Shown here one piece after another: positions 28,288 to 47,484 of a DNA stretch of 64,000 nt. The stretch lies in IMG/VR virus record IMGVR_UViG_3300037755_000828, positions 30,860-94,859 of that record, one strand, 5' to 3'. Within the stretch, counting starts at the first letter, position 1, and every line of letters starts with the position of its first letter. This stretch comes from a virus. A program made the position numbers and the translations under genes. The notes beneath the pieces were generated by a model. It was not told where the DNA came from, ran no database searches, and saw only the letters and a list, made by a program, of their open reading frames with translations.

Positions 28288-28693
28288 CGAGCTTGCTCCC
28301 GCCGGCTCGGGGAATGAAGTCTCCGTCCGCGTATAAAACACCGTCCGCGTCGATGTGAGTCGGGAACATGCCCTTGGCGACCGCGCGCGGATCGAAGTGC
28401 GCGGGCTCGGCCGAGGGCTTGGGCTCGGGCAGAGGGCCAGCGTCAAGGATCGCGGGTCGACCCGGGATCCGGATGACCGCCGATGTGGCGCAGCTTAGCG
28501 CCCGCGTGGCGAGCTGCTCAACATTGGAGACGTGGCGGCGGTAGGCTGCCATCTCCTCATCGACGTACGCGAACGCGGCCAGGAACCCGTGCGTGAACGC
28601 GGCCTCGCCATCCTGCCGAACCTCGCCACGCTCGAGCGCGAGAGCGAAGGCGCGCTCCGCCATGATCTCGACCTTGCCTTGACTCGTGGTCAT
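28280..28693 (-). CDS. Hypothetical protein
   Basis: ATGA coupling to sigma gene; no anti-sigma HxxxCxxC motif. Confidence 0.65.
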   Translation of the reverse strand: MTTSQGKVEIMAERAFALALERGEVRQDGEAAFTHGFLAAFAYVDEEMAAYRRHVSNVEQLATRALSCATSAVIRIPGRPAILDAGPLPEPKPSAEPAHFDPRAVAKGMFPTHIDADGVLYADGDFIPRAGGSKLDE

Positions 28694-29337
28694 GCGCTTG
28701 CGCTCCGCTCGGTCATGCGCGTGCTCGCGCGGTTGCCCGGCTCGGTGTCGCCGTCGCGCACGAAGCCGATCTCGCTCGCGTGATCGTGCAGCAGCTTGTG
28801 CAAGATCCTGCGGCCTCGGTAGATCCGGCTCATGACCGTGCCGAGCGGGCACTCCATGTAGTCGGCGATCTCCTTGTAAGACAGGCCTTCGAAGTCGGCG
28901 AGGGTGATCGCTAGTCGATAATCCGTCGGCAAAGAGTCGAGGGCTTCGAGGACCCGGGCCTGCGTGACCCCGGCGGAGACGGCCTCCTCGGGGCCCGGCG
29001 GATGACTGTTCGAGTTGCCGAGCGCGACGGTGTCGCCGATCGCGTTCATCTGCGAAGTCACGTCGCTCTCGAAGCGACGCTTGCGACCCCGGCGGTGATA
29101 GCCGGTGATGAACGTGTTGCGCACGATCGTGAACATCCACGCCTTGATGTTGGTGCCCGGCTGAAACGAACTCCAGAACCGGAAGGCCCGCACCAGCGAG
29201 TCCTGAACGAGATCCTCGGCTTCCTCCGGGTTTCGGGTCAGGCGCATCGCCGCGCCGTAGAGGTTGTTGTAGAGAGGCAACACAGCCGCCTCGAACTCGC
29301 GCCTCGCGGCGGCTGGCATCTCGATGTGGGCGCTCAT
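28690..29337 (-). CDS. ECF RNA polymerase sigma factor, SigH/SigR (ECF12)-like
   Basis: LYGAAMRLTRNPEEAEDLVQD, FQPGTNIKAW, SYKEIADYMECPLGTVMSRIYRGR. Confidence 0.96.
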   Translation of the reverse strand: MSAHIEMPAAARREFEAAVLPLYNNLYGAAMRLTRNPEEAEDLVQDSLVRAFRFWSSFQPGTNIKAWMFTIVRNTFITGYHRRGRKRRFESDVTSQMNAIGDTVALGNSNSHPPGPEEAVSAGVTQARVLEALDSLPTDYRLAITLADFEGLSYKEIADYMECPLGTVMSRIYRGRRILHKLLHDHASEIGFVRDGDTEPGNRASTRMTERSASA

Positions 29338-33614: not shown

Positions 33615-34604
33615 TCAGCTCTTCTCCGCGAGCACGCGACCGTGTCCGAGCCGAGCTCGGCGACCGTTGGGGTCCGGCAGCTCGATGTCCGCCGCGGATT
33701 CGTAGCCGGCCGACCACGCATCGTTGTCGATCGTCGCGCCCGTTGACTTGGCGGTGTTGAACGGCGTCGCGCCGTAGGAGTCCGACAAGAACCGCGTCGA
33801 CTCTTCGACCGCCTCGGTCAGCACCATCGCCGCGCTCATGCCCAGCTCGGCGCCTTCGTCCGCCGCCGCTTGGAGAGCTGCGTTGTCTTCCTTCGCCATC
33901 CTGTTGCGCAGCCCCGCGACGCAGCCCAGCCGCGCCGAGTTGAGCGCGGTCTTGCCCATGCCCTTGGCGATCTGCCGCGAGTTCTTGTCGACGGAGTTCA
34001 GCAGCACGCGATAGACGTAGATCGCTGCGTCGGCCATCGTGCCGCGGCCTATCATGACCAGGCGTTTCTCTCGGACGATCTCGTACTCCAGCGCGCTCCC
34101 TCGATAGCGATTCGCGTCGTGCTCGACTCCACGCGGTGATCCACCGCCAGCATGCGCCGCGCTCTTGATCTCCCAGGTCTTGAGCGGGTTCGCGTAGAGA
34201 CCTTCGAGCACGAGCCACGGTCCATCCTCGTGTTCCTCGACCACGGCCGTGCCGCGATGCTCGAGGCTGGGCCAGGCGTCGCAGATGGCGAGATCGAGGT
34301 TGATCTCGGATGTGTGCACCGCGATGGCGTAGCGCTCGGTCGACCACGGCACGCAGCCGTGTGCCTTCGCTACAACCCACGCGAGGGACCATTTGTAGCG
34401 AGGCTGCTTCGCGCCACCGATCACGACATCGGAGGGTCGGGTGACGAGCGGATCTTCAGCTTGGAAGTCAGCCGACGACCGCAGCTCGAGATGGTATTTG
34501 CGGGCAAGAGCGTTCGCTCGCGCGAGCGCGTTCTCGGCCTCTTCGGTCGTGCCGGCGTTTTCGGCCAGCAGCTGCAGTTTCTCCAACTTCGCTACGACGT
34601 CCAT
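33615..34604 (-). CDS. DUF2786 domain protein
   Basis: KLEKLQLLAE...EEAENALARANALARKY. Confidence 0.8.
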   Translation of the reverse strand: MDVVAKLEKLQLLAENAGTTEEAENALARANALARKYHLELRSSADFQAEDPLVTRPSDVVIGGAKQPRYKWSLAWVVAKAHGCVPWSTERYAIAVHTSEINLDLAICDAWPSLEHRGTAVVEEHEDGPWLVLEGLYANPLKTWEIKSAAHAGGGSPRGVEHDANRYRGSALEYEIVREKRLVMIGRGTMADAAIYVYRVLLNSVDKNSRQIAKGMGKTALNSARLGCVAGLRNRMAKEDNAALQAAADEGAELGMSAAMVLTEAVEESTRFLSDSYGATPFNTAKSTGATIDNDAWSAGYESAADIELPDPNGRRARLGHGRVLAEKS

Positions 34605-35524
34605 TAGATCAGCTCCTCTTGTTCACCCAATCGAATCAGCTCTCGAATCTTGGCACGCGCTGCGAGCGATTGCTCGTCGACGCGAGCGCGTGCGGACCAG
34701 TCGATCAGCGGCGTGATCGCATCTTCGACGAGCTGCTGTAGCACGTGCGCTGGCAGGCCATCGAGTTCGTAGGCGAGCTCGCCGTACTCCTCGGTGTACG
34801 CCGCAGCGCGCGGATCGTCTTTCTTGTCGGCGCGCCCAACCTTCAGAGCGCGGCCGAGAAGCCCGTGCGCCTCTGCTTGCTGTGGCGTCAGGCCGAGCCG
34901 CTGCACGTGGACGTCCTCGCCGCTCAGCTCCGTCAGCATCTTGCGGATGTACTTCGGCATCGACACACCCGACGGGTCGAGATCGGACAGCACGAAGACG
35001 ATCTGGCGCTGGTCCAGTCCGGCGTAGTGGATCTGCCGCTCGCTCCCGCGGAACAGAGAATCGTGCGACGTGAACCCGCCGCACGTCACCAGCGGCACGC
35101 CGAGCTTCGCACACACGGGCCACACGATGGCCTCGAGCGCGGCCTGCTCGAGCCAGACCTCAATGCGGAATTGCTGGCCGGCGTTGGCGTCGAACCGGAA
35201 GGACGCCGCGAGCTGGTCGAGCGCGGCGCGGATGCTCGTGTTGTAGCCCGGCAGCAGGGGCTCGCGCGTGCGGTCCTCGATCACGTTCCAGGCGATCCGG
35301 CCGGTGACTCGGCCATCGCGGATCGCCCCGAGTATCGACTTGTAGGCCTTCTGCCCGCTCTCGACGACACCATCGTTGACGGCCCTGTAGTAGACCTGGC
35401 GCACCGTGACGGGCCCGACCTCGGCGAAAGCTCGCTCGACGATCTTCGCTATGGTCGCGATGAACTCGGCGCGCTCGGGCGTGAAGCGCTTGTCCTCGAT
35501 CGCTTTGTAGTAGGGGACGATCAT
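34604..35524 (-). CDS. Toprim-domain protein (Topo VI-A/JetD-like)
   Basis: TVRQVYY, IEVWLE, GFTS, SDLDPSG, YELDGL. Confidence 0.8.
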   Translation of the reverse strand: MIVPYYKAIEDKRFTPERAEFIATIAKIVERAFAEVGPVTVRQVYYRAVNDGVVESGQKAYKSILGAIRDGRVTGRIAWNVIEDRTREPLLPGYNTSIRAALDQLAASFRFDANAGQQFRIEVWLEQAALEAIVWPVCAKLGVPLVTCGGFTSHDSLFRGSERQIHYAGLDQRQIVFVLSDLDPSGVSMPKYIRKMLTELSGEDVHVQRLGLTPQQAEAHGLLGRALKVGRADKKDDPRAAAYTEEYGELAYELDGLPAHVLQQLVEDAITPLIDWSARARVDEQSLAARAKIRELIRLGEQEELI

Positions 35525-36348
35525 CCTTCGGCACCCCCGCGAGAAATACCCGCGTCCTTGATCCCGAGGATGTTTCGAGCGCAGTCGCATCCGAACCAGA
35601 ACCCGTGCTCGGTGCCCGCTTTGTTGGCGATCAGGACCGGCACGAACCGTCCCGATGGGATGCTCTTGCCGCATGCTTCGCAGTCCCGGTCGGCGAACCG
35701 ACTCAAGCCGAACACCGTGCCCGCTGGCCACTTCACGAAGTAGACCTTGACCATCTTGGGCGCGCCGTCGGAACGAAAGACGAGCGCGAAGTTCTTGTCG
35801 CGTTCCTGCTCCCATCGCCAGTCGATCGGGGCCATACGGCGCGTGGCCAGGTCGAGATCGATCCCGATGTCCTGCAGCGTCGCGGTGACCTTGGGACTCA
35901 GCCCGATCTCAGTGTAGACGGGCAGCGGTCGGCTCGCGTCCAGGTCGGTGTAGATATCGCGCAGCACGACCATGAGCCGCAGCCACGCTCGGGTCACTTC
36001 GACGGAGATCTTCGGGGCGATGGCTTGCAGGTCGTCGTCCGTCGCCACGTCCAGCTCTTCGGCGCGTAGGCTCTGCCCGTGCTGGGCAGCGAAGTAGACC
36101 CGCCATAGCGCTTCCCTGCGCGCGTCGCCGTGCACCAGGCCAGGGCTTTTCATGTGCTTGCCGGCGGTAAGACCCTTATTGATGCCCTTGTCCGCACGCC
36201 GACGGCCGTGGCTCAACCACGTGCCCTGTTCGGCGCTCGCTCGGATGACCGCGATGCTGTCCGTGAACATGGTCAGCCGCGCCCCCGTGAAGTGGCCGGA
36301 GAGGATTGCAACGTCCGCGTCATCGAGAGTCGGAAGGGGCTCGGTCAT
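35521..36348 (-). CDS. Hypothetical protein with C-terminal zinc finger
   Basis: CEACGK...FGCDCA. Confidence 0.75.
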   Translation of the reverse strand: MTEPLPTLDDADVAILSGHFTGARLTMFTDSIAVIRASAEQGTWLSHGRRRADKGINKGLTAGKHMKSPGLVHGDARREALWRVYFAAQHGQSLRAEELDVATDDDLQAIAPKISVEVTRAWLRLMVVLRDIYTDLDASRPLPVYTEIGLSPKVTATLQDIGIDLDLATRRMAPIDWRWEQERDKNFALVFRSDGAPKMVKVYFVKWPAGTVFGLSRFADRDCEACGKSIPSGRFVPVLIANKAGTEHGFWFGCDCARNILGIKDAGISRGGAEG

Positions 36349-36356
36349 GTGGCGGT

Positions 36357-36382
36357 GACCTGACGCGGGCGCCGCCTATTCC
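36357..36382 (-). promoter_or_regulatory. ECF-type promoter GGAAT-N18-GTC
   Basis: 29 nt to ATG 36348. Confidence 0.85.
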
Positions 36383-36947: not shown

Positions 36948-38022
36948 TCAAGGCCGCGCCCCGAGCGAGAGCTGCTTGACGGCATTGGGCCCAATGACCT
37001 CGGTGCCGTCGCACGACCGCCCCATCTTCGTCGCGTTGACGGAGTACCTGCTCACGCAGCTGCCGTCGATCGATGTCACGCCGTAGTCGCTACACAGCGC
37101 CGCCTTGCGCTCCCCGTTGACGCGGCCGACGTGCACCCGCACGCCGAGGTCGAGCCCGAGCTGTGCCCATTGATCAACCGTCTTCCACTTCCAGTTCGGC
37201 GTGCCCTTGCCAGCGGTGCCGCCGACGAAGATCCCGAAGCCGTGCTCGAGCAGGACATCGCGGACGCGAGCGACGGTCATCCCGTCCTGCACAGCGAGCA
37301 GCCAGCTGACGTTTGCCGCGATGCCGCTCCGGTGCTTCGACCACCACGCCAGCGACCTCGCCAGCGAGGCCTCGCCAGCGCCAACGATGTCGGGCAACAC
37401 CGAGAACGTCGAGCCCGTCCCGAGCCGCTCGAGCAGCTGCATGAACGGTCGCTCTTGCCAGGCCTCGCAGGACACGTGGCAGGGCCACACGCCGTTGTCG
37501 AGCACGTAGGGCAAGCCCGGCACCGGCTCGGTGTACCCGCTCATGTCGTCGAGCTTGAAGCGCTTGAGTTCGCCGGGCTTGCTCACCACGCGCGCGCTGA
37601 CCGGGGAGAGCAGCGAGCCGAAGTCGTGCTTGTAGCAGGCGGCCACGCTGCGGGCGTTGGTCGGCCGGCACACGTAGAGCCGGAGCGGGGCGGAGCACGG
37701 GCGCAGGGACAGGCGGCGCGGGAGATGGGCCTCGGTCAGCCGCTCGCCCTCGAAGCGGACCTCGAAGCCCAGGCGCACGAGCAGGCCCGCGCTGTGCTCG
37801 AGCCCGCCGGAGAACTCGGACGGCAGGAGCTCGCGACCCAGGACCCTGCGCGCCGCGGCACCGACCGCCGCCTTCGAGTCGAAGTGTGTCGCTCAGCGCC
37901 TCCGCGATGGTCATTGCTGGCCGCACCGTCTCGGGGTCGTAGCCGCAACCGTGGTGCCCAAGCGATCCGCAGCCAGGGCACCGCCGGTCGAGATCGAGCT
38001 GCAACTGCTCGCCGTCCGTCAT
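36948..38022 (-). CDS. TGT/DpdA-like TIM-barrel protein with N-terminal ScoMcrA-head-like segment; apparent frame break near 37890
   Basis: LDNGVW, LPDIVG, LAVQDG, IFVGG, VHVGRVN, SIDGS; frame open upstream of 37778 as HFDSKAAVG...FSGGLEH. Confidence 0.7.
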
Positions 38023-39098
38023 TGCGCATACCCGGCTTCCTTGCACAGCGCGACCATCTTGGTCGCGGTGATCCCCAGCCGCGCGTGCATCTCCTTGACG
38101 AACCAGGTGTGCACCTTCGCTGCTCGCTGCTCGGGATAGCCAGCGATCCAAGCGTCCGCCCGCTCCCGAACTGCGACGAGCAGCGCCTCGCGGTGCTCGC
38201 CGGGCATCGCCTCCGGGTCCTCGCACCAGGCCGTGACGAGACCGTGCAGGCCGAAGTCGGAGATGGTCTCCGCAGCGCACTTCGGGCAGATTACCTCATC
38301 GTCTCCCGGTTCCCCGGCGTTGTGCGGGAGAGGAGCGACCCATTCGCCATGCCCACTAGCCCATCGGTCTGCGTGCGGTCGATAGAGCCCCGTCCGCTCG
38401 CCGTCGTCGACATCGTACGCGTCGACCACCATGAGGTCGCCCTTCTGCCGAACGAACTGCTCGTCGCAGAAGGAGCAGTGCTCGCCGTCATCGTCGGGCA
38501 CCCGCTCGCCTGTGCGCTCGTCGTGGAAGGTGTCGCCCTCGACACCGCCCGCGAACGGATCGGGCGTCGGACCATGCACGCGGCGATAGCCCATGGCGAG
38601 CAGGGCTGCGTCGGTGAGCGGCGTTTTCTCGAGGTCGGACCCCTTCATGCCGTGCTCCCACCCGTCGACGACCGTCACGCCCTCGGCGATCCAAATCCGG
38701 CCCGGGACCGAGGCAGGCTCCGCGTACGCGGAGACGGACGGCAACCCGTCGCTGCCGCCAGATTTGTGGTGATACAGCGTCGACTCGCGCTCAATCCAGT
38801 CGCAGTCGTGCTCGTCGATCGGCTTGCGCGTGACGATCTTGCGTTTCTTGCAAGTCGTGCATCGCTTCGGATTCGCACGCTCGACTGGCTGCCGCTTGTA
38901 GCAGCTCGTGCAGATGTCGAACTCCGGGTCGCGGGTCCAGACCGAGAACGGGATCCAAGCGCCGCAGCTCTCCAGGTGGTAGACGACGCAGATCGGCTCG
39001 GGTCCTGAGTGGGGTCCCGGCTCCCACGCTGAACCCCAGACGATCGAGCCGTCTGGGTTTTTCACGAATCCGCTAGCTGGGATGTCTTGTTTGCTCAT
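38019..39098 (-). CDS. Hypothetical protein with several CxxC motifs
   Basis: ATGA coupling at downstream end. Confidence 0.7.
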   Translation of the reverse strand: MSKQDIPASGFVKNPDGSIVWGSAWEPGPHSGPEPICVVYHLESCGAWIPFSVWTRDPEFDICTSCYKRQPVERANPKRCTTCKKRKIVTRKPIDEHDCDWIERESTLYHHKSGGSDGLPSVSAYAEPASVPGRIWIAEGVTVVDGWEHGMKGSDLEKTPLTDAALLAMGYRRVHGPTPDPFAGGVEGDTFHDERTGERVPDDDGEHCSFCDEQFVRQKGDLMVVDAYDVDDGERTGLYRPHADRWASGHGEWVAPLPHNAGEPGDDEVICPKCAAETISDFGLHGLVTAWCEDPEAMPGEHREALLVAVRERADAWIAGYPEQRAAKVHTWFVKEMHARLGITATKMVALCKEAGYAQ

Positions 39099-39123
39099 TT
39101 GTCGCCAATGCCGTTGAGGTATT

Positions 39124-39420
39124 TCATGCGCGCCAAGACTCGCCAGTGGTCGGGTACGGCTGCTCGAGCCAGTAGCGCCCGCCCGTCTCGTCGACCAGGA
39201 GGAATAGCCTGTCGGACCAAATCGACACGCTCGCGCGCCAGATCGAGCCATCCGAATCGAGCAGATCGTAGACCCAATATTGGCCGACCAGGTCGACCAG
39301 GTCGGCTAGAACGAAGATGGCATCGCGCGTCCCCTCGCAGCGACGTCCGTGCATGGTTGGATTCATGCGAACTCGCACCGGCTGCTCTGGGGTAGGGACC
39401 TCGACGACTCGTGTGGACAC
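39124..39420 (-). CDS. Hypothetical protein
   Basis: In-frame GTG 29 nt from ECF -35. Confidence 0.65.
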   Translation of the reverse strand: MSTRVVEVPTPEQPVRVRMNPTMHGRRCEGTRDAIFVLADLVDLVGQYWVYDLLDSDGSIWRASVSIWSDRLFLLVDETGGRYWLEQPYPTTGESWRA

Positions 39421-39461: not shown

Positions 39462-39845
39462 CTATCCGCCGAACAATTCGAGCTGCTCGTGGGCTCGGGG
39501 CCGAAGCTCGACAAGTCGCGCAGACACGCCATCGAGAGCGACGTCTCGATCACCACCAGGGAACCACTCCTCTGGGTGTCGATCCCAGTACCCGGCTGAC
39601 GCGGGCTTGAACATCTTGATCTCGAGTCGCCGGCCCGCGTGCCCGAGCACCATGATCTCGGTCTCGCGTTCGAGCGATTGCGGCCGCTCGAGCACAACGG
39701 CTTCGAGCACGCGGGCGAGCGTGGCGACGACGACCCGCGACCCAGGCTCCGCCGAATGCCAGATCATCCAGTTGATTCGCCGCGATTCCCTCGTGTCGAC
39801 TGCATAGAACAGGTCGCGCGCGCGTTCGCTGGGCAAGCCGTTCAC
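39462..39845 (-). CDS. Hypothetical protein ending in QLELF
   Basis: GTGA overlap with MTase stop. Confidence 0.6.
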   Translation of the reverse strand: MNGLPSERARDLFYAVDTRESRRINWMIWHSAEPGSRVVVATLARVLEAVVLERPQSLERETEIMVLGHAGRRLEIKMFKPASAGYWDRHPEEWFPGGDRDVALDGVSARLVELRPRAHEQLELFGG

Positions 39846-41317
39846 TCCCCAGACGCCAGGATCCGCGTGAGCAGGGCCTCGACCTGCTCCTCGTTGCGGC
39901 GCCCGGCCTGCTCGATGTACGGCAGTCGCGGCATCGGCAGCGCGCGGAGCTCCGTCGCCGACACCTGGGTGGTCCCGCTGATCATGCGGATGTACTGGTC
40001 GTAGAGCTGCGAGTTGAGGATCGCCGCGAGCCCGCGGGCCTCGCCTACGCCGATGCCCTCCGGCTGCAGCTGGTCGCCGGTCCGGTGGATGTAGTTCAGG
40101 TGGTTCTCGAGCCCGATGCTCTTGTAGTCCCAGTCCTTGGCGATCAGCGGCGCGGCCGTGATCCGGCGCGCGTCCTCCTTCGCCGATACCCTCCGCACGA
40201 GCACGTAGTTCTTCAGCGGCGTCAGGTTGAGCGAAGGTGTGCGCACGCGCTCGGGCTTGCGGAAGCCGTCGACCGGCCAGGTCACCGCCCCGCGCTTGAC
40301 GTGCTGCATCCACAGGAGCGGGACCCCGGGCCCAGTCTCGTTGACGCCCGCGAGCTCGGCGGTGCAGCGGAACGGCACGACCGGCCCCGTGCTCACCTTG
40401 AGCCCGAGGCTGGCGATCGTCGAGTCGAACCGGCAGATCTTCCGCCCGGCCTCGAACTGTTCGAAAGTGCTCGGCAGCGCGAGCGCCCCGTTGATGTTCA
40501 AGTCCTTGCGCTCGACCACGAAAGCCGCGTCGCCATACCCGAGCCTCGACTCCGGGTAGCCCGAGGGCAGATCATCGAGCCCGGCCGACGACGAGATCAC
40601 CACCGCATCCTCGGCGGTGGCGCGGCGCTTCTCGTACACGACCACGATGCTCTCCTGCAGCACGTCGTCTCGACCAAAGGCCATCCGCCGCGAGTCGAAG
40701 GTGTGCACCGAGTCGAGCTGCATCATCTCGTGGAACTGCTCCCGGAATCGCCGGAAGTACCAGCCGGACAAGTAGCTGCGCGGGACCACGAAGCACAGCC
40801 GCCCGCCCTCGCGCAGCAGCCCGGCCGCCACGGTCATGAACCGCGCGTAGATGTTGGGCGCGTCGCCGCTGCGCCTGTCCTTGGGCGAGAGCTTGAAGTA
40901 CGGCGGGTTCGCGATCGCGATGTCGAACGGCTCGCTGCCGAAGCACAGCTTCGAGAGGAAGTCGCCGCCCATCCACTGGGTGTCGATCCGCTTGCCGAAC
41001 CTGGCCTTGGCGCTGGCGAGCGAGTCGGTCAGCTGCGAGCAGGCGTCGCGCTCGTGCTCGACGCTCACGAGTTCGACGCGCGCGACCTTGCGCCGCTCGA
41101 GCAGCTCATCCGCCAGCCCGAGCCCGAGCGAACCGGTGCCGGCGCCGGGGTCCAGGATCCGCACGCAGCGATCCACGGGCCCCGCTGCTGCGGCCTGCGC
41201 CATGAATGCGACGAGTTTCGCGGGCGTGAAGTACTGCCCCCACTGCTTGCGATGCTCGGGGCTGATCGACTGCCGGAGCCTCTCGCCGCGCTCGAGCGAG
41301 GCTCCGAGATCGGTCAT
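39842..41317 (-). CDS. Orphan N6-adenine DNA methyltransferase (Eco57I/PstI/BsuBI-like)
   Basis: GQYFTP, ILDPGAGTG, IANPPY, VSTGPVV, ENHLN, GTTQVSATEL. Confidence 0.92.
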   Translation of the reverse strand: MTDLGASLERGERLRQSISPEHRKQWGQYFTPAKLVAFMAQAAAAGPVDRCVRILDPGAGTGSLGLGLADELLERRKVARVELVSVEHERDACSQLTDSLASAKARFGKRIDTQWMGGDFLSKLCFGSEPFDIAIANPPYFKLSPKDRRSGDAPNIYARFMTVAAGLLREGGRLCFVVPRSYLSGWYFRRFREQFHEMMQLDSVHTFDSRRMAFGRDDVLQESIVVVYEKRRATAEDAVVISSSAGLDDLPSGYPESRLGYGDAAFVVERKDLNINGALALPSTFEQFEAGRKICRFDSTIASLGLKVSTGPVVPFRCTAELAGVNETGPGVPLLWMQHVKRGAVTWPVDGFRKPERVRTPSLNLTPLKNYVLVRRVSAKEDARRITAAPLIAKDWDYKSIGLENHLNYIHRTGDQLQPEGIGVGEARGLAAILNSQLYDQYIRMISGTTQVSATELRALPMPRLPYIEQAGRRNEEQVEALLTRILASGE

Positions 41318-41508
41318 GAACCTGACCCCGACTTGATGTTCCGTTCGGCGGTCCTGTAGCCACGAGACCACTCACGGTGCTCAGTGGTGCCGCGCGTATA
41401 AGGGTTCGATTTCACCGACCTAGCAGCCTGCTGAGCAGCTCGGCCTTCCCGAAAAGCCTCGGGACTTCGATCGCGGCGTCGATGTGGATTTTGTGGACCG
41501 TTGCCCAT
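41314..41508 (-). CDS. Ribosome modulation factor (Rmf/CrpP-fold)-like protein
   Basis: RRRDRSPEAFREGRAA...NPY...REWSRGYR parallels RMF RDR..A..G..A...CPY...W..GWR. Confidence 0.65.
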   Translation of the reverse strand: MGNGPQNPHRRRDRSPEAFREGRAAQQAARSVKSNPYTRGTTEHREWSRGYRTAERNIKSGSGS

Positions 41509-41832
41509 CTACTCTGACAGCTCCTCTGCAGCCTCGCGCAGACCGTCGAGCACGCTCGCGGCGCGCAGCATCTCGGCGGCCGAGATGGCGCGCTCGCCCT
41601 CGTCGCTGTCCAGATCCGCGTCGTCGACCACGTCGGCCGCGTCTCGCAGGGCTTCAGGAAGCGAGGCAAGACCGATCACGACGCGACCCATGAACTCGAT
41701 GTCGAGGGCGCCCCAGTCGATGCAGGTGACGACGGTGGTGTAGGCGTCGCCAAGTGGACCGCCGAAGTTGGCGTTGGCGAGGGAGTTGAACATGGTGCGG
41801 ATCGGGTGGCGGATCGGGTGGTGGCTGGTCAT
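41509..41832 (-). CDS. Hypothetical protein
   Basis: ATG 29 nt from ECF -35. Confidence 0.65.
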   Translation of the reverse strand: MTSHHPIRHPIRTMFNSLANANFGGPLGDAYTTVVTCIDWGALDIEFMGRVVIGLASLPEALRDAADVVDDADLDSDEGERAISAAEMLRAASVLDGLREAAEELSE

Positions 41833-43547
41833 TCGACGTCTACCGCATCCGGCTCGCCTACATTCCCCCAAACGCTCCCGAGCGGCGGCTTGTCCGGGTT
41901 GTGCCCGCGCTTGCGCAGGTAGGCGGCCGCGAGCTTGCGCATCGCGTCGGGGTCCGTCTTGACCTCGAGCAGCCGCTCGCCCTTCGGATCAAGCACGCCG
42001 TCGGACTGCCAGCGCTTCACGCCAAGCGCGTCGAGGATCACCGGGTCGGAGCCCTCGTCGGCGAGCATCCAATATTCCATGGTCGGCGCGGCCTGGCCGT
42101 CGCGATGGATTCGCCCAGTCAGCTGCTGGTGCACGTGCGGGGACCAGTCGAGCTCGCCGTGCACCACCCGGTGGCAGACGTCCTGCAGCCCGTCGATCCC
42201 CTGACCCGAGCGCAGGCTCATGATCAACAGCTTGCTCTCGCCCGAGATCAGCGCCTGCGCAGCCGCGTCCTTTTCCTTGCTGCCCTCGTGCCCGGTGTAG
42301 AAGGCCGGCTTCCAGCGCGCGAGCTTCTGGCGCCAGATGTCGTAGACGTCGTGGTGCCAGCCGGACAGCAGCACCGGCTCGCCCGTGGTCTCGAGCAGCT
42401 CGTCGACGAAGGCCGCGACCGCGGGTGCCTTGGAGACGCCCGTCCAGCGACGCAGCTTGTAGTCGATCTCGCCGCGCGCCAGGAACCTGTCCTTGGGCGC
42501 GCCGTAGAGCGCCTGCCAAGCGAGGTCCTCGAGCTCGCCGCCGAGCCTCCCATCGAGCGGCACGTCGACCACGCTGCGGATGATCGGAGGAAGCTCGCGG
42601 CCGACGTCGACGCGGGAGCGCCGGAGCATCAATCCTTGCTCGCGCAGCCACGCTCCGAAGGCCACGGGATCCACGATGCGCAGCTTCTCGTCGGTGCCCG
42701 CACACCACTCGCGGGTGAACTCGGCCCGCTCCCCAAGCGCACCGGGACAGATCACGCCAAGCACGTTGTAGAACTCCCCGCCGTAGTTGAAGATCGGCGT
42801 CGCGCTCAGGGCCATGCAGCGCAGCGCCTTAGTGCGCAGCTCGAGCGCGCCGATGTACTTGCGCGTGCCGGCGTGGCGCAGCTCGTGGGCCTCATCGAAG
42901 ACAACCGCGCACGCCTCGAGTTCGGAGCCCCAAGCGGTGAGCCGCGAGTAGGCCATCACGATCACGTCCGCCCGCGCGCGCTTGGCCGCGCGGCGCTTGC
43001 TCTCCCCGCTCGGGCTGGACCGGACCACGTACACTTTCGCGCTCGGCAGGAACTCGGCGAGCTTGCGTTCCCACTGCTCGAGCACGTTGAGCGGGACCAC
43101 GACCACCGCCGGCAGGTTGCCCTTGCGCGCGAGCAGGGCGATCGCCGTCACGGTCTTGCCCAGCCCGAGCTCGTCGGCGCACAGGAGCCCGCCCATCGTG
43201 TCGCACAGCTCGGCCGCCAGGTCCTGGTAGTCGCGCGCGGGCTTGGCCATCGCCAGCTGCGGTCGCGCGTAGGTGCCGGTCAGGGCGAGTTGAATCCGCG
43301 CCAGCGCGTCGCGGTGAGCTTGAGCGAGCCGCTGCAGCTTGGCCGCAGTCTTCGGGCCCGCGTCCATCGGAAAGCGGCTGACGAACCACTCCAGCTCGGC
43401 GCTCACGGCCGGGGTCGCGCTCAGCCGCAGCCGCTTGCTGGCGACGTCGACGCGCGGAAACCAACGCTTGACCATGATCGAGACGTGCGGCGTCACGTCA
43501 TCGAGCACCCACGAGTTGCCCTCGTGGACCAGGCTGCCGTAGGTCAC
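41829..43547 (-). CDS. SNF2-family SF2 helicase
   Basis: LCADELGLGKT, FDEAH, LSATP, QLTGRIHRDGQ. Confidence 0.93.
   Translation of the reverse strand: MTYGSLVHEGNSWVLDDVTPHVSIMVKRWFPRVDVASKRLRLSATPAVSAELEWFVSRFPMDAGPKTAAKLQRLAQAHRDALARIQLALTGTYARPQLAMAKPARDYQDLAAELCDTMGGLLCADELGLGKTVTAIALLARKGNLPAVVVVPLNVLEQWERKLAEFLPSAKVYVVRSSPSGESKRRAAKRARADVIVMAYSRLTAWGSELEACAVVFDEAHELRHAGTRKYIGALELRTKALRCMALSATPIFNYGGEFYNVLGVICPGALGERAEFTREWCAGTDEKLRIVDPVAFGAWLREQGLMLRRSRVDVGRELPPIIRSVVDVPLDGRLGGELEDLAWQALYGAPKDRFLARGEIDYKLRRWTGVSKAPAVAAFVDELLETTGEPVLLSGWHHDVYDIWRQKLARWKPAFYTGHEGSKEKDAAAQALISGESKLLIMSLRSGQGIDGLQDVCHRVVHGELDWSPHVHQQLTGRIHRDGQAAPTMEYWMLADEGSDPVILDALGVKRWQSDGVLDPKGERLLEVKTDPDAMRKLAAAYLRKRGHNPDKPPLGSVWGNVGEPDAVDVE
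41841..41866 (-). promoter_or_regulatory. ECF-type promoter GGAAT-N18-GTA (drives rmf-like and MTase genes)
   Basis: 29 nt to ATG 41832. Confidence 0.75.
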
Positions 43548-43894
43548 AGACGCGGGAGGAACACCACGAACAGCGGCTTGCCGTTGATCTGCGCCGGAAT
43601 CGAGCGCTGCTTCGCCGACGCGGTCACCAACACCAGATCCTCGATCGCCGGATCCTCCGCGTACATCGTCAGCTGCCGTAGCACCCGCTCCGCCGTCCCC
43701 TGCACCTTGAGCTCGATCGCTGTCGAGCCCGCCCGCAGATCCACCCGGCCCCGCTTCAACGCGACCTCGGTCTCGGGGATCAGGTTCGCCCCCCGGAGGG
43801 CCGCTCGTACGTCCTCGACTAAGATAGACTCGGGCCCCGGGCGCGGGACGAGCTGGCTGAGAATCTCGAGAACGTCGGCGCTTCGGCTTGTCAT
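43544..43894 (-). CDS. PD-(D/E)XK nuclease-like protein
   Basis: EV....GRVDL.....IELK....RQL..YA. Confidence 0.75.
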   Translation of the reverse strand: MTSRSADVLEILSQLVPRPGPESILVEDVRAALRGANLIPETEVALKRGRVDLRAGSTAIELKVQGTAERVLRQLTMYAEDPAIEDLVLVTASAKQRSIPAQINGKPLFVVFLPRL

Positions 43895-45114
43895 TGGTCA
43901 CCCGATGGCTCCCCGCCGGGCGGCTCGACGGTACCACCGAGTGCGTCAGCAACGAGTTTGGTTGTTTTCTCGAACTCCGCGCGGAAGCCAACAAGCGGCG
44001 CGCCCAACTCGACCACAACATCCGACCCGACCCGACCGGCGCATTCTTCAATCTCTTCGAGTTTCACGCGGATCCGCAACAGGTCGGCGCGTGGGATGTT
44101 GTCGAGATCGGCGCGGACGATGTTGAATTCGCGGGCAATCTCGTTGGCCAGCAACCTGGTGATGTCGCCATCGCCCAGGCGCACGACGACCTCGCCGCTC
44201 GGCTCGGGCTGGACGAGCTGGGCGCGCCACTCGTCGGCTTGACGATCAGCTCGCGCGTGCGCGGCCGCCCGCTGTTCGGCGAGCTGGGCCCGCAGCTGCT
44301 CGACCTCGCGCTGGAGCAGCGCCGCCTCGAACTCTGGCTCTGGCTTGCGCGGCATGGTCGCGGCTACGGCGATCTCCGCGACGGTCCGGCGGAGCCCGTC
44401 GCGGTTGTCCGCGATCCCGCGAGCGCCGTAGCCCGCTCGTAGGATGACCTCGAGCATCGCGTTCGCACCCTCCATGCGGGCCCACTCGATCCGGTCGTCG
44501 TGGCCCTCGGGCTCGGGCTCGAGCAGGACCGCGAGCATCCGCTGGATCACGTCCTCGGCATCGCTGTCGGCAATGCTGTCGCTCGCCGCGATCGCGCGGG
44601 CGATCACACCCTTGTGAACTTCGAGCTGTTCGTCGCGATCTTCGAGGAGCGCGCGCGCCACTTCATCCGCGTGCTCGTAGGGGCACTCGTTCAGCGCTTC
44701 GCCGTCCCAGCCGAGCCGGCGAAGGACGAGATCAAGTTGTTCGCGGAGCACTTCGGCAATGGAGTCTTCGGCCATGGAACACGGCAACGCGACCGCCGCG
44801 TCGCTATTCCCGCGCAGCTCGAGCGCAAGCGCCTCCAATGCACGACCGACCGCCTTTGCGGTTTTGCCGTCCGGCCACCGATCGAGCTGATCCGAGACCG
44901 ACTGGCAGGCCGCCAGCACCGTGGTGTGGTGCCGCCCGACGAGCCGGCCGATCACAGGGAAGCTCAGGCGGGTCTGGGTGCGTATCAGGTAGAACGCGAC
45001 CAGGCGAGGCGCCGCAATGGTGCTGATCCGAGACCGGCCGAGGAGCGCATCGACGGTGATGTCGTTGGCGCGCGCGACCGCGGCGAGGATGTTCACCGGC
45101 TTGGTGTCGCTCAT
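43891..45114 (-). CDS. DnaA C-terminal (domain IV) HTH fused to a coiled-coil region
   Basis: LLGRSR...APRLVAFYLIR..TRLSFPVIGRLVGRHHTTVLAA. Confidence 0.85.
   Translation of the reverse strand: MSDTKPVNILAAVARANDITVDALLGRSRISTIAAPRLVAFYLIRTQTRLSFPVIGRLVGRHHTTVLAACQSVSDQLDRWPDGKTAKAVGRALEALALELRGNSDAAVALPCSMAEDSIAEVLREQLDLVLRRLGWDGEALNECPYEHADEVARALLEDRDEQLEVHKGVIARAIAASDSIADSDAEDVIQRMLAVLLEPEPEGHDDRIEWARMEGANAMLEVILRAGYGARGIADNRDGLRRTVAEIAVAATMPRKPEPEFEAALLQREVEQLRAQLAEQRAAAHARADRQADEWRAQLVQPEPSGEVVVRLGDGDITRLLANEIAREFNIVRADLDNIPRADLLRIRVKLEEIEECAGRVGSDVVVELGAPLVGFRAEFEKTTKLVADALGGTVEPPGGEPSGDQ
44786..44810 (-). promoter_or_regulatory. Intragenic ECF-type promoter GGAAT-N17-GTT
   Basis: 30 nt to in-frame ATG 44775. 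Confidence 0.7.
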
Positions 45115-46163
45115 AGCCAGTCCTGATCATCAGGCTCATCTCGCCCAGGGATGTTGATGCCGCAGTCCTCAAGCGAGAGCCACAGCCCGCGCATCGCCTT
45201 GTCGGCTTCTCGTAGGTTCTTGTCGAGCTCAAGCGCGATGACGTCCAGGTCCACGATCGGCTCCGGTTCATAGGCTGGCGGTGCTGCGGCTTGGATCGGC
45301 TCCGACGGCTCGGCGCCTTGGGTGATCGTGATCGTGCATGTCCTGACCCCGGTCCCGCTGGATGCGAAGGCCCCAGGCTGGTGATCGATGACCTTCGCTC
45401 CGATGCGGGAGAGCCAGCCCCGGAGCGCCTTGAGTCGCTTCTTTGAGCTGCTCTCCCATGTCCCGCGCGGCGCCACGCAGGCGAGCACGCCACCGGGCGC
45501 GAGCAGACTGAACGCTCGCCGCAGATGCGTCTCCCAGGCGACGGGATCGCCGTCGACCGAGAAAGGCGGGTTCATGATGATCACGTTGAACAGCTGCCCG
45601 CCGAAGTCGACGGCGAGGAAGTCCGCCTCGGCCACGACCGCACACGCGCCATCGAGCATCGCGGCGTTCAGGGGGTCGAGTTCGACCGCGGTGATCCGGG
45701 CTTGCGGCCAGCGAGCGTGTGCGGCAGCAACGAGGGCGCCAGACCCGGCCGAGGGCTCGAGGATGAACATGGGATCGGCCGCAACCTCAAGCCCTCGAAC
45801 GATCTCGGCGGCGAGCTCAGCCGGCGTCGGGAAGTAGGCGAGCGGGTTCTTGGCCGGCATCCGCCCGCTGGCGATCACGGTGTTGATCGCTGCCGTTGGA
45901 TCGTACGGAAACACGTGGCCCTTGCGCCGCTTCCACGCGCCGCGCAGTCGAGTGAGCACGTCGTTGAGTTCGTCGTAGACCGCGGGCTCGGCCTTGGGCA
46001 GCGGCCGCACGGTGTTGCTCTCGATAACCGCCGAGCGGAGCAGCGCGAGCACGGGCGGACTGACGCGCGGGCCCAGGTCGATGGGTGCTGGTTCGACCGC
46101 GGGCTGCGCGAGCTCGGGCATCTGCTGTTGGAACAGATCGACCTGCGCGCTCGCCTTGCTCAT
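45111..46163 (-). CDS. Orphan N6-adenine DNA methyltransferase
   Basis: YFPTP, ILEPSAGSG, IMNPPF. Confidence 0.9.
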   Translation of the reverse strand: MSKASAQVDLFQQQMPELAQPAVEPAPIDLGPRVSPPVLALLRSAVIESNTVRPLPKAEPAVYDELNDVLTRLRGAWKRRKGHVFPYDPTAAINTVIASGRMPAKNPLAYFPTPAELAAEIVRGLEVAADPMFILEPSAGSGALVAAAHARWPQARITAVELDPLNAAMLDGACAVVAEADFLAVDFGGQLFNVIIMNPPFSVDGDPVAWETHLRRAFSLLAPGGVLACVAPRGTWESSSKKRLKALRGWLSRIGAKVIDHQPGAFASSGTGVRTCTITITQGAEPSEPIQAAAPPAYEPEPIVDLDVIALELDKNLREADKAMRGLWLSLEDCGINIPGRDEPDDQDWL

Positions 46164-46336
46164 GGCTGACCACCGGTCCCCAGAAAACCGACGAGTGAGC
46201 CGACCAGGCCGAACGCGAAAATCAGCGCGACCCAGACATCGCCAACGTAGGCGGCCACGAACAGCGCCACCACACAGAGCATGCAGAGCACCGCGAAGAT
46301 CACGAGCAACGGTAAAGGCGGCGGCGATTCCAGCAT
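46160..46336 (-). CDS. Small two-TM membrane protein
   Basis: Two hydrophobic segments; ATG 30 nt from ECF -35. Confidence 0.65.
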   Translation of the reverse strand: MLESPPPLPLLVIFAVLCMLCVVALFVAAYVGDVWVALIFAFGLVGSLVGFLGTGGQP

Positions 46337-46345
46337 GGACCTGGC

Positions 46346-46371
46346 TACTCGCCTTCGTCGGATGGCATTCC
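46346..46371 (-). promoter_or_regulatory. ECF-type promoter GGAAT-N18-GTA
   Basis: 30 nt to ATG 46336. Confidence 0.75.
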
Positions 46372-46452
46372 CGCCGCGTCTTCGCTTCCGATTTCTTGAC
46401 CGGAAAAGTCGCCGGGCTGTTCGGGCCTGTGGAAGCCCGCTGGCAGCTGGGG

Positions 46453-47484
46453 CTAGGTTGCCAAGTGCGAAGGGTCCCCACGCCCGGTAGCCGCCAAGAT
46501 CACGGCCATGGCCAGGTCGATCGGCACGGCGTTTCCGAGCAGCTTGGCGGAGTCGCGGGCGTTGGTGTCGAGCAGCTTGTAGGAGTCGGGGAATCCTTGG
46601 CTGCGCTTGACTTCGTTCTTGGTCCACAACCGGTATTCCCCGTCGCGCGTCCACCAAAGCTGGCCCGCCTGGCCGGTGACCGTGTTGACGGGCTCGGACG
46701 CCGGGATTCCCCAATATCCATAGTTGGTGTGCTGACCGATCCCGAGCGCGCCGTTGAGCCGCTGGTTGGACTGGCGCGCCTTTTCCTTGGCGGACAGGTA
46801 GCCCTTCTCTCGAGCTTTTGCAGAGGGCTCGCGGTCGGGCATGTCCTCGATGTTGATCCACCCGCGTTCGCCGGCGTCGAAGATCGTACCCACCCCGGGC
46901 TCGAGCACGTCGGGGTTGATCATCTGCACGGGCGGCCCGCCCAAGACGCCGATGAAGAACCACCGCCATCGACGTTGGGGCAGCCCGAACTTGGACGCGC
47001 ACAGGAACTGCTGCGTCACCGCGTAGCCGAGCTTGCGCAGGGCGGCGAGCCAGCGTTGAAAATCTTTCCAGCGGATGAACCCGCGCACGTTCTCGACAAT
47101 CAGGTACTTCGGCCGGCAGACCTGCGCGCACTTCCAAACCGCCCATGCGGTCACGCGCATCTGGGCGTGGCTGTCGAACACCTTCCTGCTGGTCGCGCGG
47201 CCGATCTGCCCGGCGTCGCTGTGGCCCTGGCAAGCGCAGCCGGCAGTGAGGATGTCGAACGGGTCGAGCTCGGCGAACTTGAATCCCAGCAGGTTGCGCT
47301 GCAGGTGCTCGGTGTCCCGGTGGTTCGCGGCGTGCACCCGGATCGCCCGGGGCCAGTGGTTCACCGCGAGGGTGACGTCGATGCCCGCGCGCTCCATCGC
47401 CAGCGTGAAGCCGCCCAGGCCGCAGAACATGTCATTGCCCTTCAGGCCGGTGCTGACGGCCTCGGCATGCTGGCGCATCAGCAT
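46453..47484 (-). CDS. Orphan C5-cytosine DNA methyltransferase
   Basis: DMFCGLGG, ACQGHS, ENV, PQRR.R, GNAV. Confidence 0.93.
   Translation of the reverse strand: MLMRQHAEAVSTGLKGNDMFCGLGGFTLAMERAGIDVTLAVNHWPRAIRVHAANHRDTEHLQRNLLGFKFAELDPFDILTAGCACQGHSDAGQIGRATSRKVFDSHAQMRVTAWAVWKCAQVCRPKYLIVENVRGFIRWKDFQRWLAALRKLGYAVTQQFLCASKFGLPQRRWRWFFIGVLGGPPVQMINPDVLEPGVGTIFDAGERGWINIEDMPDREPSAKAREKGYLSAKEKARQSNQRLNGALGIGQHTNYGYWGIPASEPVNTVTGQAGQLWWTRDGEYRLWTKNEVKRSQGFPDSYKLLDTNARDSAKLLGNAVPIDLAMAVILAATGRGDPSHLAT

Follow-up and report, generated by a model that had tools for sequence, protein, structure and literature searches.

The reading frame at 36948–37778 belongs to a DpdA-like gene whose close relatives carry an N-terminal ScoMcrA-type head; in this genome the gene has been truncated by a deletion and is probably weakly expressed or silent. 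We put the probability of this reading as a whole at about 0.75. Sequence comparison places the gene in a small (~205-aa barrel) DpdA-like branch of the tRNA-guanine transglycosylase (TGT) superfamily. The open frame upstream of the gene and the coupled ATG at 38022 were left behind by a deletion that disabled two genes or at least crippled them. The architecture of the family is of more interest than the copy described here: a predicted DpdA-like branch is widespread, lacks a Pfam model and in many uncultured phages is linked to queC, and one high-GC clade has joined the barrel to a head previously known only as an appendage of ScoMcrA without a function.

The window (64,000 nucleotides) comprises bases 30860–94859 of a single 94,859-bp IMG/VR virus record, for which CheckV estimates a completeness of 97%. 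GC content is ~67% in the record, and minus-strand genes are found throughout the region around the DpdA-like gene. The features of the locus and its surroundings are listed in Table 1.

One deletion truncated two genes

The first-pass annotation reported that the 36948–37778 frame stays open to about 37892, and that a coupled ATG at 38022 with a CxxC arrives at the same point in a different frame. Both statements were confirmed. The barrel frame is open upstream as far as TGA 37895–37893, the one TGA reported inside the family-profile match, and the ATG, which shares letters with the stop codon of the gene before it (ATGA), opens a frame shifted by +1 that encodes CPGC. By codon-position GC, the ATG-38022 frame has a coding pattern from 38022 to ~37900 and the barrel frame is coding from ~37885 downward (GC3 0.92–1.0); the observation was therefore real, with both frames as described and supported as coding. 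No in-frame start codon was found between 37892 and 37778, GTG 37778 is the only ATG, GTG or TTG in the barrel frame downstream of the junction, and no strong Shine-Dalgarno sequence precedes it.

Table 1. Features of the DpdA-like locus and its surroundings, in window coordinates
Feature	Positions	Strand	Remarks
ECF-type sigma factor, phage-encoded	28690–29337	-	Sigma70 r2 + r4; PHROG 1740
DUF2786/DUF7168 protein	33615–34604	-	follows the 34604–35815 gene
PHROG 6247 'DNA topoisomerase'-class protein	34604–35815	-	E 8e-52, residues 107–395
ORF as called, 276 aa	36948–37778	-	GTG start
DpdA-like TIM-barrel catalytic domain	36951–37685	-	residues 70–314 of P0001; stop codon 36948–36950
Invariant Asp of IDGS	37065–37067	-	
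Chimeric reading frame	37174–38022	-	46 real small-gene codons followed by 236 read out of frame through the barrel gene; stop 37174–37176
Invariant Asp of PDIVG	37389–37391	-	
Invariant Asp of LDNG	37497–37499	-	
ScoMcrA-type head remnant	37719–37883	-	family-profile positions ~41–95 (helices 3 and 4, last strands); open frame, no start codon
Deletion junction	37883–37884	-	head-domain sequence (TTC GAC = F D) below, small gene above
Small Cys/His gene, 5′ fragment	37884–38022	-	46 codons + 1 nt; CPGCGS-x2-H-x2-C
TGA closing the barrel frame on its upstream side	37893–37895	-	
Cys-rich ORF, ≤410 aa	38019–39251	-	translationally coupled to the small Cys/His gene
Eco57I/N6-adenine methyltransferase	39842–41371	-	
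SNF2-family helicase	41829–44051	-	
Protein with DnaA C-terminal HTH	43891–45114	-	
Second methyltransferase	45111–46481	-	weak DarB-like PHROG matches
C5-cytosine methyltransferase	46453–47484	-	

ATG 38022, which had been read as part of the barrel gene, starts a separate conserved family of 85–105 aa. Seven homologs (85–170 aa, six of them 85–105 aa; E 4e-17 to 9e-9) align to residues 1–46 and then run on differently for 40–55 residues that the window lacks. The motif of this small-protein family is CPGCGS-x2-H-x2-CGYDPETVRPAM; an invariant CPGCGS-x2-H-x2-CGYDPE is seen in P0146–P0152 and at L087:4001–4288, and these invariant Cys/His residues probably form a zinc knuckle. The family gave no Pfam match, and no dpdA-like gene lies within 4 kb at its one viral locus (a 143-kb contig).

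The profile of the barrel family matched the genome once, at positions 41–331 only, and the first 40 head residues were not found anywhere in the 94.9-kb genome. Intact 352-aa relatives with a whole head have 92% (P0140) and 89% identity; P0140 is encoded on a 13.7-kb contig and P0005 on a 26-kb contig. A contig from a relative that is ~95% identical (X4, record 23) matches 37404–37883 and then encodes AYKLVVDGEE, an intact head (reverse complement); because it diverges exactly there, the breakpoint is placed at 37883/37884. Contig X3 (record 22), from a separate 2025 study, covers 37856–38400 with 0 differences, junction included, so an assembly or sequencing error does not explain the junction. 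Over 37400–38400, two possible source runs show no difference from the window, and the 94.9-kb record and a 65-kb Logan contig yield the same 276-aa call. In all, the deletion allele is unchanged in three runs from three studies (2020–2025), two of which may represent the source DNA.

It follows that a single event deleted the small gene's 3′ half together with head codons 1–40, cutting the former after codon 46 and the latter before position 41 and joining them in the +1 frame. Its size would be ~0.25–0.3 kb, an estimate that assumes that the two genes were adjacent. The first-pass annotation had suggested an intact fusion hidden by an indel at 37880–37900. Neither an intact fusion nor an indel was borne out, the site being a deletion scar that contigs (not reads) reproduce and at which the intact relative exactly diverges; what had been seen is a remnant, neither a missed exon nor a sequencing error.

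Both X3 and X4 are sediment metagenomes, of which X4 has the intact form and X3 the deletion junction; X3 also has a short contig whose match ends exactly at 37883. The differences in X4 fall at 8 first, 2 second and 11 third codon positions, which says nothing on selection after the deletion because these differences do not separate the two lineages.

A DpdA-like barrel and its predicted chemistry

The TGT/DpdA-like identity proposed for the barrel was upheld, the decisive link being one of sequence: a tblastn chain together with a profile alignment. With a short family member as query, tblastn reached SEA-PHAGES genes annotated 'DpdA-like' or 'queuine tRNA-ribosyltransferase' (E 1e-5 to 2e-10); the best match was in Roseobacter phage CRP-701 (1e-11), to a gene annotated as ssDNA-binding protein. 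Alignment of the family profile with Arthrobacter phage Aoka gp40 by hhalign gave a probability of 99.2% (E 3.3e-19, 193 columns), with all motifs in common. By profile, the SEA-PHAGES 'DpdA-like tRNA-guanine transglycosylase' proteins (Aoka gp40, 208 aa; Sonali gp81, 205 aa; Mycobacterium phage Majeke gp54) belong to the same family, sharing DNG, PDxVG, QDG, (F/I)GG..WK, H.GRVN and DG with it. They are stand-alone barrels of ~205 aa, whereas the intact members of the window's clade add a ~95-aa N-terminal ScoMcrA-type head and a linker. The protein database holds 551 homologs, including stand-alone forms of ~205–277 aa, and the barrel is matched by PHROG 15826 (E 6e-26), a PHROG of unknown function.

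In BFVD, a set of predicted viral structures, the best non-family Foldseek matches were mostly phage queuine tRNA-ribosyltransferases, and ESM features pointed to DUF6610 (DpdA4; the nearest named cluster, 0.91) and to DpdA clusters. An AF2 model of an intact 352-aa homolog (pLDDT 88.9) has an N-terminal alpha/beta domain (1–95) and a TIM barrel (105–335). Against the PDB, the barrel gave VIA Z scores of 14.2 with ArcTGT, 14.1 with bacterial TGT, 13.4 with DpdA (7ui4) and 12.6 with Cap10; pyruvate kinase scored 14.8 and many other TIM barrels 12–13, and with scores thus tied the fold alone does not decide.

Several searches were negative. Neither the window protein nor intact relatives or short members matched Pfam (TGT PF01702, DUF6610 PF20314) or NCBIfam; the same Pfam scan gave no match for known phage DpdA-type proteins either (phiST DpdA3, Sonali gp87). 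The window barrel had no PADLOC match, and a single-sequence PDB search with an intact homolog returned nothing useful. Comparison of the family profile by hhalign with single sequences of phiST DpdA3, HVTV-1 DpdA4 and Sonali gp87, and with a 13-sequence DpdA4 profile, was not significant, and HMMER found no match to the profile in the phiST and HVTV-1 records. A search of viral contigs for related loci with one protein found nothing, and a metagenome scan yielded only one 1.3-kb partial contig without the 5′ end.

The motifs that the first-pass annotation had called transglycosylase-like (LDNG, PDIVG, QDG, FVGG, HVGRVN and IDGS) are present in the window copy and are among the invariant columns of the family. 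Exactly three Asp residues are invariant, those of LDNG, PDIVG and IDGS, and in the AF2 model each stands where a strand finishes, at its C-terminal end. A spacing of 36 residues separates the first from the second (35 in DpdA), and four positions after the first is a Trp, where DpdA has Phe99. In DpdA, Asp95 is the acid/base, Asp130 recognizes the base and Asp256 is the nucleophile, a trio invariant in TGT and DpdA alike (PMC10164549). The family trio appears to mirror Asp95/Asp130/Asp256, an equivalence drawn from order and spacing rather than from residue-level superposition. By analogy, the LDNG Asp would be the acid/base, the PDIVG Asp would recognize the base and the IDGS Asp would be the nucleophile. 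The barrel would then replace guanines of double-stranded DNA with a 7-deazaguanine base, for instance preQ0, and the exchange would pass through a covalent Asp–C1′ intermediate, as in TGT and DpdA.

DpdA is a DNA preQ0 insertase, with phage subfamilies DpdA1–DpdA4 (Hutinet et al. 2023, PMC10516641). With Salmonella DpdA (7UI4) the window family has in common the TIM-barrel fold (Z 13.4, rmsd 3.6, 209 aligned), the order of the three invariant Asp, the first again followed at four positions' distance by an aromatic residue, and, in part of the family, a queC neighbourhood. It differs in being much shorter, in having no visible CxCxxC...H zinc motif and in giving no significant sequence or profile match to phiST DpdA3, HVTV-1 DpdA4 or Sonali gp87. 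For DpdA4/DUF6610 (PF20314), Halovirus HVTV-1 gp69, the order of motifs does line up in a weak hhalign alignment (probability 2%, E 0.022), with the pairs (gp69/window family) GDY/PDIVG, VPHG/VQDG, VGYS/FVGGS, HLLGG/HVGRVN and SIDGN/SIDGS.

The absence of queC/D/E and folE from the window, noted in the first-pass annotation, extends to the whole genome: in a Pfam scan of all 94,859 bp, run with positive controls, there was no match for TGT, QueC, GTP cyclohydrolase I, PTPS/QueD or radical SAM. With no genes for preQ0 synthesis of its own, the phage would have to take any deazaguanine from the host. Elsewhere queC is present in 14 of the 50 viral records that bear the family, always 30–510 nt from the family gene and on the same strand; among the 27 such records at least 90% complete it occurs in only 3. 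It was not found in the records of the fused clade (G001–G004, of which G001, G003 and G004 are complete genomes), and neither were folE, queD or a radical-SAM gene.

The only cultured phages with proteins close to the family are the Erythrobacter phages vB_EliS_R6L (KY006853) and ZS04, at 49% identity to the short form. In R6L (L086: gp10, gp7, gp1) the protein in question is gp10; a PAPS-reductase-like protein is encoded three genes away and a DNA modification methylase close by. The region around the ZS04 member is annotated DarB-like. Arthrobacter phage Sonali (MK411746) has two different transglycosylase types (L085/L088: gp81, gp87, gp88): gp81 is a small DpdA-like barrel, and gp87, encoded six genes further along and adjoining a QueC-like gene, is a larger 'queuine tRNA-ribosyltransferase'.

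The ScoMcrA-type head in relatives of the window copy

Homologs joining a ScoMcrA head to the barrel, as the first-pass annotation predicted, were found: 47 of the 120 best-scoring clusters are 350–440-aa proteins with N-terminal PF26345 followed by the barrel. A profile of intact members matched residues 6–100 of PDB 5zmm (ScoMcrA) with E 1.7e-15, and positions 4–92 of the PADLOC mREase_IV model (type IV restriction) matched the profile of intact relatives with E 5.8e-6. A model of the head only aligned with 5zmm_A at Z 10.0 (rmsd 1.9 Å, 71 residues, 35% identity); the next chain had Z 3.5, and the faint matches were winged-helix or HTH DNA binders. In the ESM Atlas the head had no match.

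These results establish the identity of the segment as a ScoMcrA-type head; a complete domain, however, is not present here, where only positions 41–95 remain. The 64-residue remnant of the window itself has a single PDB match, to 5zmm residues 48–93 (E 0.13). Compared with its head-bearing relatives, the window copy lacks the first 40 head residues and the start codon. Compared with ScoMcrA (Sco4631, a type IV restriction endonuclease; PDB 5ZMM), whose residues ~5–95 are matched by the head of the intact relatives, it keeps only the C-terminal 55 head residues.

The papers on ScoMcrA describe its head as a small domain with a flexible attachment and no known function (PMC6224610; PMC7461809). 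A profile of the head matches ~1,400 representative proteins of 89–1170 aa, of which three were sampled: a ScoMcrA ortholog, a head–HNH protein and a head–McrB-GTPase protein. With McrA-like HNH and McrB-like GTPase proteins among its matches, the head recurs at the N terminus of type IV restriction proteins as a module. In the clade described here it is fused to a predicted DNA-modifying barrel, not to SBD/SRA/HNH or McrB modules, and as far as searches show, the fusion of a ScoMcrA head with a DpdA-like barrel appears to be undescribed. Because the module is present in McrA- and McrB-like restriction proteins as well as in DpdA-like phage proteins, it serves both sides of the phage–host conflict over modified DNA.

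What the head does can be put forward only tentatively. It is conceivable, though doubtful, that it is a portable DNA-targeting or modification-sensing module, common to host type IV restriction enzymes and phage DpdA-like modifiers, that directs or stimulates deazaguanine insertion with host preQ0; it might act by reading already modified DNA or by binding the base. Were this so, it would be the first testable role for the head, and the allele in the window would be a natural head-less variant. The head–barrel fusion would in any case offer a simple system for learning the role of the head.

A 613-aa ORF in a complete 80.8-kb viral genome (L004:4876–6717) has a C-terminal DpdA-like barrel, 63% identical to the query barrel, preceded by a different N-terminal region of ~400 aa that has no Pfam match; this form suggests that the barrel has other fusion partners. 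Pfam searches on the neighbours of the fused genes in L001–L003 were uninformative.

Expression of the truncated copy and genome setting

The barrel of the window copy differs from its nearest relatives by 10 lineage-specific substitutions and one single-residue deletion. The residues are mostly ones found elsewhere in the family, and only one change is unusual for it (Gly to Cys at P0001 residue 142). None of the invariant residues has been lost, and neither stop codons nor frameshifts interrupt the barrel. The N terminus of stand-alone family members corresponds to 37685, exactly the start of the barrel, so that a head-less enzyme is plausible in principle. Ribosomes entering at ATG 38022 would read a nonsense frame across the barrel gene, and barrel would be made only from the internal GTG 37778. 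Because this sole start has no clear ribosome-binding site or promoter motif and lies beneath the ATG-38022 frame, we lean, with modest confidence, to a copy that is poorly expressed or silent. A truncated gene that still works is a serious, if less favoured, alternative. Here the barrel would be made from GTG 37778 with a 31-residue leftover N-terminal tail and would modify phage DNA as a stand-alone DpdA-like enzyme; the many stand-alone family members of ~205–277 aa with an equivalent start, the intact state of the barrel and the persistence of the allele across three runs and three studies (two runs possibly being the source) are consistent with it. Against this stand the poor initiation signals of GTG 37778, its position inside a frame translated from ATG 38022 that has no stop until 37174, and the consideration that absence of decay may only reflect a recent deletion. 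A further reading is a programmed frameshift (+1, of the prfB/Ty1 kind) on the heptamer CUU-CGA-C at the junction, by which ribosomes would link the fragment of the small gene with what is left of the head and with the barrel. The junction does create CUU followed by C, on which a Leu tRNA could re-pair on UUC, and in-frame CTT CGA C is absent from 23 confident genes of this genome. The idea is weakened by the frequency of CGA, which is not rare here (10% of Arg codons); moreover, GGAGG lies ~15 nt upstream compared with 3 nt in prfB, and the motif was made by the deletion, would yield a product with a broken head domain and offers no conservation to test, so that we regard such a frameshift as very unlikely.

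That both frames appear coding on either side of 37890 would also be accounted for by a sequencing or assembly indel in a real gene encoding one in-frame protein (CxxC segment, head and barrel). Such an indel can be dismissed almost entirely: what lies above the junction has its homologs in another protein family and not in the head, the first 40 head positions are absent, none of the 551 homologs has this N terminus joined in frame, and the same junction, with no letters added or missing, recurs in contigs of two possible source runs and of the independent 2025 study. A different kind of doubt concerns the enzyme rather than the gene, namely that the barrel is a TIM-barrel enzyme of other activity, such as a DNA glycosylase or hydrolase, or one that acts on a nucleotide or protein substrate like Cap10. 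The lack of Pfam matches, fold scores tied with those of unrelated TIM barrels and including Cap10, a protein-modifying TGT relative, at Z 12.6, and the scarcity of queC in the more complete records leave room for this; the tight same-strand adjacency to queC in 14 records, the trio of invariant Asp and the fact that genes annotated DpdA-like are homologs make it unlikely. We therefore retain a DpdA-like assignment for the family and a deletion-truncated, probably weak or silent gene for the window, and in annotation the 276-aa ORF should be kept and flagged as 5′-truncated, with ATG 38022 flagged as a truncated small gene.

Minus-strand GGAAT motifs occur at 36382, 36736, 39454 and 39789, and between 36948 and 39454 there is no such minus-strand promoter motif. 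The proteins encoded next to the gene in the window had no homologs in 80 related viral loci, and the Cys-rich ORF at 38019–39251 matched nothing in Pfam, PHROG or NCBIfam scans; its true start is probably later, as the listed one overlaps the preceding ORF by ~130 nt. For the 'DNA topoisomerase'-class protein the real start is probably internal, given the residues covered by its PHROG match. Upstream of the DpdA-like gene, a minus-strand block of DNA-modification or anti-restriction-type genes extends over 39842–47484; a role in protecting DNA would fit the surroundings of the DpdA-like gene, which has three DNA methyltransferase genes next to it.
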